5,513 nt of DNA from a virus (Duplodnaviria > Heunggongvirae > Uroviricota > Caudoviricetes): IMG/VR virus record IMGVR_UViG_2585427764_000006. The stretch is one strand, 5' to 3'. The notes beneath the pieces are model-generated. The model saw nothing but the letters and a program-made list of their open reading frames with translations. It was not told the DNA's origin and ran no database searches. Numbering within the stretch: position 1 is the first letter of the stretch; each line of letters starts with the position of its first letter. The translations under genes were made by a program, and so were the position numbers. Positions 351 through 5,513 of the stretch are shown here, in pieces.

Positions 351-351
351 C

Positions 352-1479
352 TTCAGCATCCGGACGTTCGCCAATTTTCGCCTCCCACGTCTCACCGAGC
401 GTGGTGTTTACGAAGGTTTTACGTTTTCCCGTATCCCCTTTCGTTTTCATCCAGTCTTTGACAATCTGCACCCAGGTGGTGAACGGGCTGTACACCGTCC
501 AGATGTGAAAGGTCACGCTGTCCGGCGGCTCAATCTCTTCACCGGATGACGAAAACCAGAGAATGCCATCACGGGTCCAGATCCCGGTCTTTTCGCAGAT
601 ATAACGGGCATCAGTGAAGTCCAGCTCCTGCTGGCGGATGACGCAGGCATTATGCTCGCAGAGATAAAACACGCTGGAGGGGTCATCCGGCGTCCATTTG
701 AGGCCAAACGGCGTCTCTTTGTCGCCAAATTTAAGATACTGCTCCTCCCCGCAGTGCGGGCAGGCAACATGAAAACGCATAAAATGCGGGGATTCACTGG
801 CTGCACGCTCAATCTGGCAGGTGCCTCTCACTTTGGGCGTGGAGCCACGGATGGACTTTGGCCAGACCGAGCCTTCAATACGTTTGTCGCCAAGGAACGT
901 CGGAGAGCCTTCCTGTTCAATATCCTCATCAAAGGCAGCAAGTTCATCATAACCCGCCACATCCACCGACTTTTCACGGTAGTTTTTTGCCGCTTTACCG
1001 CCCAGGCACCAGAAGCCACGACCATTGGAAAAACGCTTCATAGTGAGCGTGTTATCCCGGTGCTTTTTGCCATACCACGGAGCCAGCGCCAGCAGCGACG
1101 GAATATCGCGGATGGTCGGCTCAACGTGGGTTTTCATAAAGTTCTCGGCATCACCATCCGTCGGCAACCAGATAAGGGTGTTGCGCTGCTTATGCTCTAT
1201 GAAGTAGGCATAAACACCCAGCAGCATTTTGGAATAACCAACACGGGCAGACTTCACCACATTCACCTCGCGGACGTAGTCACTGCCCATCGCATTCATG
1301 ATGGCCCGCTGAAAGGGCAGTGTTTCCCAGCGCCCTTCCTGGTATGCGGATTCTTTCGGGAGATAGTAATTGGCATCCGCCCATTCAACGGCGGTCTGTG
1401 GCTCCGGCCGGAACAGTGAGCGAAGCCCGGCGCGGACAAAATGCCGCAGCCTGTTAACCTGACTGTTCGATATATTCAC
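352..1479 (-). pseudogene. A: Terminase large subunit (lambda gpA-like), N-terminal 376 codons, interrupted by the IS66 insertion
   Basis: The translation MNISNSQVNRLRHFVRAGLRSLFRPEPQTAVEWADANYYLPKES...TLGETWEAKIGERPDAE matches lambda gpA as I recall it. Full-length gpA is about 641 aa. After codon 376 the ORF runs into IS-derived sequence (GKRLVRTVLIFTESSDQ...) and stops at 241. The start overlaps the Nu1 3' end by 26 nt, as in lambda. Confidence 0.9.
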
Positions 1480-1999
1480 TCAGCAACCCCGGTATCAGTT
1501 CATCCAGCGCGGCTGCTTTGTTCATGGCTTTGATGATATCCCGTTTCAGGAAATCAACATGTCGGTTTTCCAGTTCCGGAAAACGCCGCTGCACCGACAG
1601 GGGGATCCCGTCGAGAATACTGGCAATTTCACCTGCGATCCGCGACAGCACGAAAGTACAGAATGCGGTTTCCACCACTTCAGCGGAGTCTCTGGCATTC
1701 TTCAGTTCCTGTGCGTCGGCCTGCGCACGCGTAAGTCGATGGCGTTCGTACTCAATAGTCCCTGGCTGGAGATCTGTCTCGCTGGCCTGCCGCAGTTCTT
1801 CAACTTCCCGGCGCAGCTTTTCGTTCTCAATTTCAGCATCCCTTTCGGCATACCATCTTATAACGGCGGCAGAGTCATAAAGCACCTCATTACCCTTGCC
1901 ACCGCCTCGCAGAACGGGCATTCCCTGTTCCTGCCAGTTCTGAATGGTACGGATACTCGCACCGAAAATGTCAGCCAGCTGCTTTTTGTTGACTTCCAT
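1454..1999 (-). CDS. nu1: Terminase small subunit (lambda gpNu1-like), apparently intact
   Basis: The 181-aa product MEVNKKQLADIFGASIRTIQNWQEQGMPVLRGGGKGNEVLYDSAAV... is near-identical to lambda Nu1 as recalled. It begins with the winged-helix DNA-binding region and lies immediately downstream of cosB. Confidence 0.95.
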   Translation of the reverse strand: MEVNKKQLADIFGASIRTIQNWQEQGMPVLRGGGKGNEVLYDSAAVIRWYAERDAEIENEKLRREVEELRQASETDLQPGTIEYERHRLTRAQADAQELKNARDSAEVVETAFCTFVLSRIAGEIASILDGIPLSVQRRFPELENRHVDFLKRDIIKAMNKAAALDELIPGLLSEYIEQSG

Positions 2000-2024
2000 T
2001 GTTCATTCCACGGACAAAAACAGA

Positions 2025-2079
2025 GAAAGGAAACGACAGAGGCCAAAAAGCCCGTTTTCAGCACCTGTCGTTTCCTTTC
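2025..2079 (-). promoter_or_regulatory. cosB terminase-binding R elements (R1/R2-like inverted pair)
   Basis: GAAAGGAAACGACAG at 2025-2039 and its exact reverse complement CTGTCGTTTCCTTTC at 2065-2079 form a perfect 15-bp inverted pair separated by 25 bp. They sit where lambda cosB R1/R2 sit relative to the Nu1 start. An R3-like copy (GAAGAACGGAAATG) is at about 2121-2138. Confidence 0.7.
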
Positions 2080-2176
2080 TTTTCAGGGGGTATTTTAAAT
2101 AAAAACATTAAGTTACAACGAAGAAGAACGGAAATGCCTTAAACCGGAAAATTTTCATAAATAGCGAAAACCCGCG

Positions 2177-2188
2177 AGGTCGCCGCCC
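2177..2188 (-). other. cosN (12-nt cohesive-end segment of the cos site)
   Basis: The plus strand reads AGGTCGCCGCCC, the reverse complement of the lambda cohesive end GGGCGGCGACCT. The flanks also match the lambda ends as recalled (CGCGGGTTTTCGCTATTTATGAAAATTTTCCGG on one side, CCGACAGGTTACG on the other). Confidence 0.85.
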
Positions 2189-2220
2189 CGTAACCTGTCG
2201 GATCGCCGGAAAGGACCCGC
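2189..2220 (-). promoter_or_regulatory. cosQ-containing region (packaging termination element) adjacent to cosN
   Basis: CGTAACCTGTCGGATCGCCGGAAAGGACCCGC is the reverse complement of the sequence that directly precedes cosN at the lambda right end, with apparently one substitution relative to my recollection of lambda. Confidence 0.5.
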
Positions 2221-2224
2221 AAAA

Positions 2225-2239
2225 TGATAATAATTATCA
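2225..2239. promoter_or_regulatory. Fur-box-like 7-1-7 palindrome (candidate iron-responsive operator)
   Basis: TGATAATAATTATCA is a perfect inverted repeat, TGATAAT-n-ATTATCA, matching the core Fur box motif. It lies about 150 bp upstream of the DUF3950 start codon on the plus strand. Confidence 0.4.
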
Positions 2240-2387
2240 TCTGCATGTCACAACGTGCATCTACGCCATCAAACCACGTCAAATAATCAATTATGACGCA
2301 GGTATCATATTAATTGATCTGCATCAACTTAACGTAAAAACAACTTCAGACAATACAAATCAGCGACACTGAATACGGGACAACCTC

Positions 2388-2621
2388 ATGTCAACGAAGA
2401 ACAGAACCCGCAGAACAACAACCCGCAACATCCGCTTTCCTAACCAAATGATTGAACAAATTAACATCGCTCTTGATCAAAAAGGGTCCGGGAATTTCTC
2501 AGCCTGGGTCATTGAAGCCTGCCGCCGGAGACTGTGCTCAGAAAAAAGAGTTTCTCCTGAAGCAAACAAAGAAAAGAGTGACATTACTGAATTGCTCAGA
2601 AAACAGATCAGACCAGATTGA
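2388..2621 (+). CDS. Small basic protein, DUF3950 family (YnfO/YlcI-like prophage protein)
   Basis: The 77-aa ORF MSTKNRTRRTTTRNIRFPNQMIEQINIALDQKGSGNFSAWVIEACRRRL... resembles the small proteins encoded next to noh/Nu1 in E. coli cryptic prophages. Its orientation is opposite to the late genes and the local sequence is AT-rich. Confidence 0.8.
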   Translation: MSTKNRTRRTTTRNIRFPNQMIEQINIALDQKGSGNFSAWVIEACRRRLCSEKRVSPEANKEKSDITELLRKQIRPD

Positions 2622-2677
2622 AGCAATTTAGATAATCGTGCAGACTACACCCCTCATATCACATGGAAGGTACTACA

Positions 2678-3088
2678 ATGGCTCAGGTTGCCATTTTTAA
2701 ACAAATATTCAATAAAGTGCGAAATAATTTAAACTATCACTGGTTTTATTCTGAACTAAAACGTCACAATGTCTCACATTACATTTACTATTTAGCCACA
2801 GAGAATATTCATCTTGTTCTTGAAAACGATAATACGGTTTTAATAAAAGGACAGGGTAAGGTTGTAAATGTAAGATTTTCAAAAAATAAATGCCTTATAG
2901 AAGCCACCTTAAAAGGATTCAAATCAGGAGAGTTATCATTTTACGAATACAGGAAAAATCTTGCTACAGCAGGGGTTTTCAGATGGATTACAAATATCCA
3001 CGAAAACAAAAGGTATTACTATACCTTTGATAATTCATTACTCTTTACTGAGAACATTCAGAACACTACACAAATATTTCCGCACTAA
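2678..3088 (+). CDS. DUF1398 family protein (YbcV/YdfO-like prophage protein)
   Basis: The ORF track gives 2663-3088, but the second ATG at 2678 is preceded by GGAAGG with about 6 nt spacing, so [14 protein letters not shown]... is the likelier start. The C-terminal block [38 protein letters not shown] is characteristic of this family as I recall it. GC content is low, about 25-30% by eye. Confidence 0.8.
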
Positions 3089-3344
3089 ATCATAACGTCC
3101 GGTTTCTTCCGTGCCAGAACCGGACTCGCTGGCATGATGAAATATGTGTACCCGGTAACCCCGGTGTGCATCGTTTTTGATTATTCCCACACACTCGCGC
3201 AGAAGGAGTTCCCCGTCGGGCTACGGTCTCTGTTAATACGGGAATACGGCGACGATACAGCGCATGATGTGTCAGGCTTGAATACCTTTATCCTTTAAAA
3301 GGGATATCAGTTAAGTTATCCCGTGTAGGGTATAAGCCATTATC

Positions 3345-3373
3345 AAAGCCACTCTGTAGGAAGTGGCTTTTGT
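3345..3373 (+). terminator. Candidate intrinsic terminator for the plus-strand moron genes
   Basis: AAAGCCACT (3345-3353) pairs with AGTGGCTTT (3362-3370) around an 8-nt loop, followed by TTTTG. The GC core is only 6 bp, so this is weak to moderate. Confidence 0.3.
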
Positions 3374-3378
3374 AATGG

Positions 3379-3405
3379 CAATAAAAAGCCCCGCGAATGC
3401 GAGGC
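3379..3405 (-). terminator. Candidate rho-independent terminator downstream of the Rz/Rz1 lysis genes
   Basis: On the minus strand GCCTCGC-ATTC-GCGGGGC forms a 7-bp GC-rich stem (one G-U pair) followed directly by TTTTTAT. It sits about 175 bp downstream of the Rz stop. Confidence 0.45.
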
Positions 3406-3579
3406 TAAATCCTGGTATTTGTAATGACTGGCTCTTATCTCAACGCAGCCCCTTACCGCGCGCAAAATGCTCAATATCAAGCATCAGCAATGAGATGTTT
3501 AATCTGGATTCACTCCAGAAGTGAGCACCACCCTGTCTACAGAGCCAGATGTGAAGGATGATGAGTAAAATTATCGCTA

Positions 3580-4047
3580 TCATCGAAGGCATTGCGTCCT
3601 GATGTATTCCTGAAGCGTTCTCAGTGCTGTTTGGTCGCGGATAATTCCGTCCCGGATACCGAGAACGTTTCGTCCAGCAACTGGAGAGAGTTCGACGGTG
3701 GCATCATTGCCCATGCCGGAGGCGCTGGAGGTTTCGGCTGAGGATGGCACAGGGCATTTTCCTTTGACGAGCACCCGACCACCATTATCAAGCTTGCGCC
3801 GAAGAGCATCATTTTCAGCTTTCGCATCAGCTAACTCCTTCGTGTATTTATCATCGAGTGCATCAGCATCACGCTGGCGCTGCTGCATGTCAGTAATGGT
3901 GGCGTTCGCCTTCTCCAGTTCACTGGCCTTGTTATCGCGCTGTTCTTTGTAGGCGATTGCATTATCACGGTAATGATTAACAGCCCATGACAGGCAGACG
4001 ATGATGCAGATAACCAGAGCGGAGATAATCGCGGTTACCCTGCTCAT
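3580..4047 (-). CDS. Rz: Rz i-spanin (inner-membrane spanin subunit)
   Basis: [31 protein letters not shown]... matches the lambda Rz N-terminus with its single N-terminal transmembrane helix and coiled-coil region. The probable start is the ATG at 4047-4045, which overlaps the R stop as ATGA; the ORF track starts 4 codons earlier. The C-terminal third diverges from lambda Rz. Confidence 0.9.
3621..3827 (-). CDS. Rz1: Rz1 o-spanin (outer-membrane lipoprotein), embedded in the +1 frame of Rz
   Basis: [21 protein letters not shown]... has a lipobox (VVGC) followed by a proline-rich segment ([11 protein letters not shown]), and lies wholly inside Rz in another frame, the classic embedded-spanin architecture. 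Confidence 0.8.
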
Positions 4048-4541
4048 TGTTGCCCCCACAAACAGACCTCACGCTCAATCTCACGACGAGTCATCAGGCC
4101 TTTCCATTGCTTACCGCCAGCGTATGCCCAGCGACGTAGCTGGTCACATGCGCCCTTGATATCGCCCTGGTTTATTTTGCGAAGAAGAGTAGATGTTCTG
4201 AAATTGCCTGCGCCCACGTTATAGACGAACGAGTAAAGAGCGCCGCGCGTTGTTTCCGGTATATCGACTTTGATGTACGGGTTAATTTGTCTGGCTACCG
4301 TGGCAAGGTCTTTATTCAGGAGGGCTTTGCATTCTGCTTCGGTATACGTTTTACCGGGAATGATGTCTTTTCCTGTATGCCCGTGACATACAGTCCATAC
4401 GCCAACGATATCTTTGTATGGTATGTAGCTGACACCTTCCAGACCATCGTTACCACTTGGGCCAGTGATTAACACTGATGCTATAGCAATTGCTCCGCCA
4501 CCAATAGCAGCAGCAACGGCTTTTCGTAATGATGGAGGCAT
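4044..4541 (-). CDS. R: SAR endolysin (phage 21 R-type lysozyme)
   Basis: The 165-aa product has an N-terminal Gly/Ala-rich weakly hydrophobic signal-anchor-release domain ([18 protein letters not shown]), then a T4-lysozyme-like catalytic triad at E35, D44 and T50. It is near-identical to phage 21 R as recalled. The start overlaps the S stop (TAATG). Confidence 0.93.
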
Positions 4542-4756
4542 TATTCACCTCTCGCAGCCTTGCGCTTATCTTCTTTAATCTTGAAATAAAGGTTTGTCAG
4601 GTACGTCAGCAGGCCAAATACCAAGCTACCCAGCACACCTATTGCTGCCCACTGTGAGGGCGTGACTTTATCGAGCAACTGTAAAAACCAGTAGCCAGCA
4701 CTGCCTGCGGAGGTGCCGTAGGCAATGCCCGTTGTTAACTTATCCATGGATTTCAT
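4541..4756 (-). CDS. S: Pinholin (phage 21 S-type), dual-start class II holin
   Basis: The 71-aa product [26 protein letters not shown]... has the dual-start motif Met1-Lys-Ser-Met4 (antiholin and holin forms), two transmembrane segments and a charged C-terminus. A strong Shine-Dalgarno GGAGGTGAGGC lies immediately upstream. Confidence 0.93.
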
Positions 4757-4850
4757 AGCCTCACCTCCGCAAATAACGGATGGTGTACACGGTTCGGAAC
4801 GAAGAGGAAAGGTATAGAAGTTACATTAGCGTAAGGCTTGAACATCTATT

Positions 4851-4882
4851 CAAAAAGAAAAACGCCGCGATTATTCTGGCGT
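4851..4882 (-). terminator. Candidate tR'-like intrinsic terminator upstream of S
   Basis: On the minus strand ACGCC-(11-nt loop)-GGCGT is followed by TTTTTCTTTTTG, about 105 nt upstream of the S start codon. The stem is short (5 bp), so this is tentative. The position resembles the lambda late-leader terminator that Q antiterminates. Confidence 0.3.
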
Positions 4883-5002
4883 AGCTGAAAGCATCATACA
4901 ATTATCAAATACGAAAATTACAAAATCATTAAAACGCATCACGTTACATCATGTCTTTTTCTAAAAAAAATCTTGATGAATATTGATGGTGCGTATTACC
5001 GT

Positions 5003-5092
5003 GAAGGAGATCGGTGAGTAACATCGATGGAGATCGGTTCGTGTCACTTTCACAGAACCGTTTTTAAATTACCTTCACTGATCTCCTTCGGT
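5003..5092. repeat. IS21-family terminal repeat cluster
   Basis: GGAGATCGGT occurs as direct copies at 5006-5015 and 5029-5038, the first as GAAGGAGATCGGT from 5003. An inverted copy (GATCTCCTTC, reverse complement of GAAGGAGATC) lies at 5081-5090, overlapping the last istB codons. Confidence 0.5.
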
Positions 5093-5512
5093 CAACGGAG
5101 ATTGTATTTTCCGCATTGATTCTCCTTGAAGTTCGATCTTGATACTGCCATGAACCAGTCGATCTAGGATGGCATCCGCATGTGTGGAGTCTCCGATCAT
5201 TTTGTACCAGTTTTCCACCGGCAACTGGCTCACTACGATGATTGAGCCTCGTTGGTACATCAGATCCACTATTTCCAGCAGGTCGCTACGCTGTTCTGAT
5301 GAGAGAGGTTCCAGCCCCCAGTCATCCAGAAGCAGCAGATCGCTATTATTCAGCCTGGTCAAAAGTTTGCTGTATCTTCCATCAGCATGCCCCTGATAGC
5401 ACTGTTCCATCAGCGCTTTAAGGCGATAATAGTAGACCTTGTATCCCTGTCGGCAGGCATTATGACCAAGTGCACATGCCAGGAACGTTTTACCGCTGCC
5501 GGTGGCCCCGGT
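5075..5512 (-). CDS. istB: IS21-family IstB ATP-binding helper protein, C-terminal portion (5' end outside window)
   Basis: The frame is open to the window edge: TGATGSGKTFLACALGHNACRQGYKVYYYRLKALMEQCYQ... contains a Walker A P-loop (GATGSGKT), then a Walker B-like LLLLDDWG. The ORF track shows only the part from the internal Met at 5410. Confidence 0.88.
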   Translation of the reverse strand, partial: TGATGSGKTFLACALGHNACRQGYKVYYYRLKALMEQCYQGHADGRYSKLLTRLNNSDLLLLDDWGLEPLSSEQRSDLLEIVDLMYQRGSIIVVSQLPVENWYKMIGDSTHADAILDRLVHGSIKIELQGESMRKIQSPLTEGDQ

Positions 5513-5513
5513 C

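Follow-up and report, generated by a model that had tools for sequence, protein, structure and literature searches.

A DLP12-like lambdoid lysis cassette with phage 21-type S and R genes and a modular Rz

A stretch of 5,513 nucleotides from a Caudoviricetes record (IMGVR_UViG_2585427764_000006), referred to here as the window, carries four lysis genes on its minus strand between two insertion sequences (IS). An earlier note on this DNA described the cassette as a mosaic, with S and R of the phage 21 type, packaging genes of the lambda type and a recombination junction inside Rz/Rz1. The locus raises two questions: whether its Rz is a hybrid, and what the intactness of its lysis genes means next to IS damage. 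To address them, we compared the window with the genomes of phage 21 (OL657228), lambda, the K-12 prophage DLP12, P22, Salmonella phage SPN9CC, and E. coli phage Kati. With a probability of roughly 0.9, we interpret the locus as the late lysis operon of a lambdoid prophage resembling DLP12, lying between two recent IS insertions and with a modular Rz that reflects an exchange made long ago. The four genes are arranged as follows.

4756..4541, minus strand: S, 71 aa (MKSMDK...), Pfam PF04971 at 2.2e-35, with a GGAGG Shine-Dalgarno sequence upstream.
4541..4044, minus strand: R, 165 aa, Pfam PF00959 at 8.9e-46, with a GAGAGG Shine-Dalgarno sequence.
4047..3580, minus strand: Rz (i-spanin), 155 aa counted from the ATG, PF03245 at 3.8e-29 and phrog_13 at 1.2e-74.
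3827..3621, minus strand: Rz1 (o-spanin lipoprotein), 68 aa, in the +1 frame wholly inside Rz, PF06085 at 3.8e-21 and phrog_3198 at 3.8e-26, with an AAGGAG Shine-Dalgarno sequence.

All four proteins score far over the Pfam gathering thresholds (Phage_holin_2_1, "P21 holin S", at 120.9 bits for a gathering score of 26; Phage_lysozyme at 155.7 bits; Phage_lysis, the Rz model, at 101.9 bits; Rz1 at 75.0 bits), and the PHROGs assignments agree with these matches. Among the NCBIfam models, none named S, Rz, Rz1 or a 50-aa ORF found downstream of the cassette, and R gave only below-cut-off matches to unrelated equivalogs; an Rfam search of the whole window at E<=0.1 returned no match. The genes are tightly coupled: S ends and R begins within a shared TAATG (GAA TAATG CCT), and R likewise overlaps Rz through a shared ATGA (CAA CAATGA GC). 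The translations contain neither frameshifts nor premature stops in S, R, Rz or Rz1, and R and Rz are 100% identical in amino acid sequence to those of Kati, so that the four intact, coupled ORFs described earlier at 3580-4756 are borne out and no inactivating mutation had been missed. The ORF listing extends Rz to an upstream GTG at 4059, but lambda, phage 21, and Kati start elsewhere. In records of this kind Rz1 is frequently left unannotated, as in Kati and STEC309.

The S and R genes were, as had been proposed, found to be of the phage 21 type, and they are still closer to their DLP12 counterparts. S shares 87.3% amino acid and 77.7% nucleotide identity with S21 and 98.6% amino acid identity with EssD of DLP12, and R shares 96.4% amino acid and 94.3% nucleotide identity with R21 and 97.6% amino acid identity with RrrD, S being more diverged from its phage 21 counterpart than R. 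The 71-aa S protein has the dual start noted earlier, in which Met1, followed by Lys2, gives the longer S71 antiholin and Met4 gives the S68 holin; residues 1-6 are identical in S21 and EssD, and the phage 21 record annotates both S21-71 and S21-68. Only the second transmembrane domain (TMD2, about residues 35-54) exceeds KD>1.5, and TMD1, a segment of 16 residues, is weakly hydrophobic. In S21-type pinholins, a weakly hydrophobic Gly/Ala-rich TMD1 exits the membrane and TMD2 makes the pinhole. S is thus predicted to be a class II pinholin/antiholin gene of the S21 family, in the essD allele carried by DLP12. The 165-aa R product contains the catalytic triad E35, D44, and T50 in its translation, in line with the earlier description, and matches over its full length the structures of RrrD (PDB 4zpu, 3.4e-109) and of the phage 21 lysozyme (3hde, 2.4e-108). 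A predicted Gly/Ala-rich SAR segment of 20 residues (approximately residues 7-27), which falls in a hydrophobic window, is identical in R21. These features identify R as a predicted SAR endolysin (GH24 lysozyme) of the R21/RrrD type.

The packaging side of the window is of the lambda type, as the earlier note had stated. Nu1 is 98.3% identical to lambda Nu1 and 98.9% to NohD of DLP12, but only 51.9% to its phage 21 counterpart. The terminase fragment matches lambda A as far as codon 376, the point at which an IS66-family element interrupts it; cosB is of the lambda type, with cosN at 2177-2188; and genes for a DUF1398 protein (YbcV-like) and a DUF3950 protein (YlcI-like) lie between Rz and cos. 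DLP12 (essD-rrrD-rzpD/rzoD ... ybcV, ylcI, nohD) has its genes in this order as well and likewise pairs 21-type S and R with lambda-type Nu1 and cos, and the YbcV-like and YlcI-like products of the window are 76.5% and 81.2% identical to their DLP12 counterparts. The combination is therefore real, but it is the DLP12 arrangement and not a new one. DLP12 differs from the window in its spanins, RzpD and RzoD being the lambda allele (61% and 50% amino acid identity to the window proteins), and in having borD, in place of which the window carries about 315 nt with the 50-aa ORF (phrog_11822).

Phage 21 has the same 71-aa MKSM pinholin, the same 165-aa SAR endolysin with E35, D44, and T50, and the same gene overlaps, and codons 1-82 of its Rz are 83% identical to those of the window. 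However, besides the lower identity of S given above, it carries another allele in the 3' half of Rz and in Rz1, has its own Nu1/cosB specificity, carries tRNA genes on the upstream side of S, and has bor farther downstream. Close relatives of the cassette are found in the phages Kati (PP925833) and Ayreon (MF807953), in which the whole 1177 nt are 98.7% and 96.0% identical, respectively. The Rz1 of Kati differs by one residue, and Kati shares with the window the small downstream ORF, the DUF1398 gene, and the lambda-type terminase, but it diverges beyond about position 4790, upstream of S. Unlike the window, both records are complete phage genomes, and neither contains the IS insertions. The cassette is thus an ordinary, already described combination of alleles found in lambdoid phages of E. 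coli and Salmonella.

The IS damage reported on both sides was confirmed. On the left, an ISCro1-like element of the IS66 family, ending at position 350, cuts terminase A short at codon 376. On the right, the start of ISEc12 (IS21 family) lies at about 4965-4990, which places it 210-230 nt or so upstream of S; its left end is approximate, as prophage homology extends to 4989 and IS homology begins at 4965-4979 in other contexts. A match to the window that reaches 5037 in some strains was traced to an ISEc12 inserted at that same site in the opposite orientation. In relatives lacking the ISEc12 insertion, the DNA farther upstream carries an HTH gene together with ybgA, a gene for a lipocalin, and Q. 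ISEc12 thus lies between the cassette and the prophage segment in which relatives carry Q, and presumably also pR', and for this reason the cassette is probably transcriptionally silent at present.

The intactness of the lysis genes had been attributed either to recent inactivation or to retention of lysis capacity. The first of these explanations is supported by our data, as positions 351-4989 are 100.0% identical at the nucleotide level to several E. coli genomes that lack both insertions. The IS events are therefore too recent for decay to have occurred, and the intactness of the cassette says nothing about selection. It has been reported that the SRRz/Rz1 operon of DLP12 is stress-regulated and modulates the production of outer membrane vesicles (OMVs) (Pasqua et al. 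2021, PMC7918800). Selection for such a host use, whether vesicle production or cell-wall maintenance in the manner of DLP12 and perhaps driven by read-through from ISEc12, might have kept the cassette intact, and this proposal draws on the OMV role of the DLP12 operon, on the near identity of S and R to EssD and RrrD, and on the fact that istB of ISEc12 points in the same direction as S. We nevertheless consider it improbable: the identity to insertion-free relatives leaves no time for decay, the minus strand between ISEc12 and S showed no sigma-70-like promoter, and strain Z1323HEC0010 carries the same cassette with ISCro1 inserted inside Rz. A more specific version, in which read-through or an outward promoter of ISEc12 would give low expression of the cassette and the latter would be retained as a host-serving module for vesiculation or cell-wall turnover with an HK620-type spanin pair in place of the lambda-type one, is more doubtful still.

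The second question concerns Rz. It had been noted that Rz matches lambda over about its first 90 residues and then diverges, and the pairwise alignments to lambda and phage 21 that had been suggested as a check indeed reveal a discrete break, located not near residue 90 but between codons 82 and 83. A maximum chi-square scan found a single breakpoint at Rz nt 245 (window position 3803; chi2 71, permutation p<=5e-4), and its position was the same whether the window was compared with lambda, phage 21, or DLP12. Nucleotide identity to lambda is 89.0% on the 5' side of the breakpoint and 53.7% on the 3' side; at the protein level, 70 of 82 residues of Rz are identical to lambda before the break and 25 of 70 after it. 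The break follows Leu82 of Rz and Leu8 of Rz1 (between codons 8 and 9 of the latter), and megablast alignments to 434, mEp332, cdtI, and other phages end at query positions 954-961, which is the same place. It divides Rz into two modules, the first of which ends in a conserved stretch at the junction.

3803..4047, minus strand: Rz 5' module, codons 1-82, with the transmembrane domain and most of coiled-coil 1 (CC1), common to lambda, phage 21, and DLP12.
3580..3802, minus strand: Rz 3' module, codons 83-155, with the end of CC1, the linker, coiled-coil 2 (CC2) and the C-terminus, together with Rz1 past codon 8.
3803..3850, minus strand: conserved 48-nt stretch ending at the junction, encoding 16 residues of Rz and containing the Shine-Dalgarno sequence, start, and first 8 codons of Rz1.

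Such a pattern could in principle arise with no recombination at all if Rz had diverged uniformly from a lambda-like ancestor and its 5' part had stayed similar under stronger purifying selection on the transmembrane domain and CC1 than on the part that overlaps Rz1. Previous reports lend some weight to this idea, since embedded o-spanin regions diverge faster than the remainder of the i-spanin (Kongari et al. 2018, PMC6139136) and within CC1 it is residues 61-87 that are most sensitive to mutation (Cahill et al. 2017, PMC5295617). The comparison with P22 gp15 also has the expected form, the upstream part being 81-87% identical at codon positions 1 and 2 and only 53% at position 3, which is near saturation. 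However, in the comparisons with lambda, phage 21, and DLP12, third-codon-position identity is not uniform (80% upstream and 55% downstream of the break for lambda), the change in identity is abrupt at one position, and only two differences from phage 21 are found in the first 85 nt of Rz. Because position-3 identity is high to lambda and low to P22 gp15, the lambda-like 5' part represents recently shared DNA, beyond what protein constraint would maintain, and divergence without recombination appears very unlikely.

The mosaic junction proposed earlier in Rz/Rz1 is thus real and sharp, but it does not make Rz a lambda/21 hybrid. The Rz and Rz1 proteins of phage 21 are 97.4% and 98.3% identical to lambda's own, and consequently the N-terminal part of the window Rz is equally 21-like. 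The 5' module is patchy with respect to phage 21, with identities of 97.6% over nt 1-85, 76.8% over nt 86-180, and 92.3% over nt 181-245, which indicates that more than one exchange was involved. This patchiness, together with the greater divergence of S than of R, is the usual fine-grained mosaicism of lambdoid phages.

The earlier note treated the C-terminal part of Rz as divergent from lambda without assigning it to any family. It is instead a known allele: compared with SPN9CC, Rz shows no break, its nucleotide identity being uniform at 97.5% over nt 1-447, and the last seven codons differ between the two (RTQCLR versus VTQCLK). The 3' module is 96.4% identical to SPN9CC and 99.6% to Kati at the nucleotide level, against 53.7% for lambda, and the whole Rz protein is 94.8% identical to that of SPN9CC, against 62.5% to lambda. 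SPN9CC differs from the window elsewhere, with an unrelated holin (37% amino acid identity) and a diverged SAR domain in R. Kongari et al. (2018, PMC6139136) assign 83 members to the lambda Rz i-spanin family, among them lambda, 21, P22, spn9CC, mEp460, and HK620. Most of the o-spanin partners belong to one of three families, namely HK97 (with P22), lambda (with 21), and HK620 (with, among others, HK620, SE1, SPN3UB, ST104, mEp460, spn9CC, and vB_SosS_Oslo); the i-spanins partnering HK620-family o-spanins all belong to the lambda Rz family. The six sequences compared here reproduce these three o-spanin classes. Membership of the i-spanin family is set at >=40% identity over >=40% of the periplasmic domain, and the window Rz, whose periplasmic domain is 55.5% identical to lambda, 52.5% to P22 gp15, and 93.9% to SPN9CC, falls within it. 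HK620-type o-spanins are defined by a periplasmic domain >=40% identical to that of listed members, and the window Rz1 belongs there through the listed member spn9CC, to which its mature form is identical at 50 of 50 residues, rather than through HK620 itself. Mature Rz1 is also 42.5% identical to lambda Rz1 over 40 aligned residues, where the lambda-type threshold is 40%, so that the boundary between o-spanin families is a matter of degree, although the protein is far nearer to the HK620 group than to the lambda-type o-spanins, those of lambda, 21, cdtI, and 933W. Judged by sequence, the 3' module with mature Rz1 therefore corresponds to the HK620-type Rz/Rz1 allele catalogued by Kongari et al. 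(2018). These allele classes rest on the six fetched genomes and the tables of Kongari et al. and not on the list of Rz protein homologues, in which the best 120 of 7991 matches all represent one allele (>=87% identity). One match annotated "Gp15" made P22 gp15 a candidate source of the 3' module, and it was rejected, as P22 gp15 and Rz1 represent a third allele (55.6% and 33.3% amino acid identity to the window proteins).

Within this divergent module, the features needed for spanin function appear to be retained. As in lambda, Rz1 is embedded in Rz, and Rz, a predicted type II inner-membrane protein, has an N-terminal transmembrane domain (hydrophobic residues 1-26) and two periplasmic cysteines, Cys98 and Cys153, which align with lambda C99 and C152; the single periplasmic cysteine of Rz1, Cys27, aligns with lambda C29. 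These lambda positions are those of the homodimer disulfides (Cahill et al. 2017, PMC5295617). Rz1 has a VVGC lipobox with Cys19 (MVVGC|SS) and Ser, not Asp, at +2, and a proline-rich core, PKPPAPPAW; lambda Rz1 likewise has a lipobox and a proline-rich core. It is 8 residues longer than lambda Rz1, and codons 1-82 and 83-155 of Rz are 85% and 36% identical to lambda in amino acid sequence, whereas lambda S and R are proteins unrelated to those of the window.

The junction is widespread. The 231-nt 3' module was found in 94 phage records (47 Salmonella and 25 Escherichia), including mEp460, SPN3UB, vB_SosS_Oslo, SE1, and SPN9CC, with 96-98% nucleotide identity to the first four, and a junction-spanning fragment of this length was matched over >=80% of its extent in 1734 of the 5426 complete E. 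coli genomes searched. The junction is therefore ancient and already catalogued, an old boundary between two families of spanin alleles and not an event of this prophage. That the cassette is instead a new hybrid, formed by recent recombination in this IS-riddled prophage, for instance with another resident prophage, is scarcely conceivable, for although E. coli genomes carry several lambdoid prophages (medians per genome of 5 window-matching places and 2 Rz-fragment matches) and thus offer the opportunity, the identical junction occurs in Kati, Ayreon, vB_EcoS-569R4, PhiR70_1, and Salmonella P22-like phages as well as in those 1734 genomes, and the window is identical to other strains from 351 to 4989. 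Either of the two allele families may be the recombinant one in this ancient exchange.

The break lies close to where CC1 (lambda residues 27-87) ends. SPN9CC, phage 21, and DLP12 share the 48-nt stretch leading up to it unchanged, and lambda has a single mismatch there. This stretch is doubly constrained, since it encodes the mutationally most sensitive portion of CC1 and at the same time holds the ribosome-binding site, start, and first codons of Rz1, and it is likely to have been the substrate for homologous crossover. A crossover within it would swap, as one block, mature Rz1 and the linker, CC2, and C-terminus of Rz that binds Rz1. As Rz1 and the C-terminus of Rz lie on the same DNA, both interacting partners would be exchanged together, and the embedded architecture guarantees the co-variation of the Rz and Rz1 C-termini for which a check in related phages had been suggested. 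The exchange itself took place long ago and has since become fixed in numerous phages of E. coli and Salmonella.

We infer the lysis function of the cassette, the interaction of Rz with Rz1, and the state of its expression by analogy with the phage 21 and lambda model, using the spanin domain map of Cahill et al. (2017, PMC5295617). According to this model, the S71 antiholin made from the MKSM dual start would delay the S68 pinholin, which would then trigger and depolarise the inner membrane. Depolarisation would then free the membrane-tethered SAR endolysin R, which would refold into an active lysozyme (E35/D44/T50) and degrade the murein, after which the complex of Rz in the inner membrane and the outer-membrane lipoprotein Rz1, spanning the periplasm, would fuse the two membranes.

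Past its correct annotation, the cassette is of little importance in itself, and the modularity of the lambda Rz family, in which one i-spanin family is paired with several o-spanin families, has already been documented (Kongari et al. 2018). A "lambda-like Rz" in an annotation is, however, no evidence of a lambda/21 hybrid. More generally, the cassette illustrates how embedded gene pairs travel between phages, with a crossover just upstream of the region encoding mature Rz1.

Within S (window 4575-4756, minus strand), the first 167 nt of the gene were 76% identical to S21 at the nucleotide level, sliding-window identity to phage 21 then rose to 100% from about position 4560, and R was 94.3% identical to R21 over its full length. 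Taken together, these values point to a further mosaic boundary close to where S ends, on its 3' side. The gene is present here as the essD allele of the K-12 prophage DLP12. At the other end of the cassette, the last ~36 nt of Rz and the start of a small 50-aa ORF were shared at 97-100% with epsilon34, g341c, and other phages, the rest of whose Rz differs. This pattern of sharing suggests that another module boundary lies at about position 3615.

The features surrounding the lysis genes, by window position, were as follows.

1-350: right end of an IS66-family (ISCro1-like) element, with terminal ...GACGAGTCGCTTAC, ending at 350
351-1479, minus strand: lambda-type terminase large subunit, truncated, cut by the IS66-family element
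2388-2621, plus strand: YlcI/YnfO-family DUF3950 protein, 77 aa, between Rz and cos
2663-3088, plus strand: DUF1398 YbcV-like protein, 141 aa, lambdap78 homolog, between Rz and cos
3387-3406, minus strand: terminator-like element, a GC-rich hairpin with a run of T after it, directly downstream of the 50-aa ORF
3440-3592, minus strand: 50-aa ORF with a hydrophobic N-terminus, matching phrog_11822 (1.8e-36; function not assigned by the phrog)
~4965-5513: ISEc12 (IS21 family), istB on the minus strand

The 50-aa ORF, whose start sits 13 nt ahead of the Rz stop, corresponds to hypothetical protein WP_001139678.1 in E. coli annotation and is also carried by phage Kati. It holds the position occupied by bor in lambda, 21, and DLP12, and bor is missing in this prophage type. 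Local blastn of the 3265-3579 region gave no match in lambda, in phage 21, or in DLP12 of K-12; the region was identical in STEC309 and, over the aligned part (down to ~3480), in Kati. The terminator-like hairpin is on the same strand as the lysis genes. Further towards cos, the G+C content of the DUF3950 and DUF1398 genes appeared unusually low by eye. The basis for the "head protein" label given to the lambdap78 homolog in PHROGs and RefSeq was not evident.

Rz1 was unannotated in the records of both Kati (L002 4216-5177) and STEC309 (L006 11189-11656), and the Kati endolysin was labeled "hypothetical protein". Kati Rz1 was one residue apart from that of the window (P31L); the underlying nucleotide change is silent in Rz.

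On the left flank, the terminase large subunit was lost beyond codon 376 of 641, at the IS66-family end, and the exact junction had no match in a one-genome-per-species collection. On the right, the strand of istB makes ISEc12 co-oriented with S-R-Rz. In strain P27_L1_05.20 this site was occupied by an ISEc12 in the reverse orientation, suggesting that IS elements have a hot spot for insertion upstream of essD-like genes. Finally, E. coli Z1323HEC0010 (L009 8230-11404) harbored the same cassette with a complete ISCro1 within Rz/Rz1; IS insertions are thus frequent in this prophage family, and the lysis genes are not spared.
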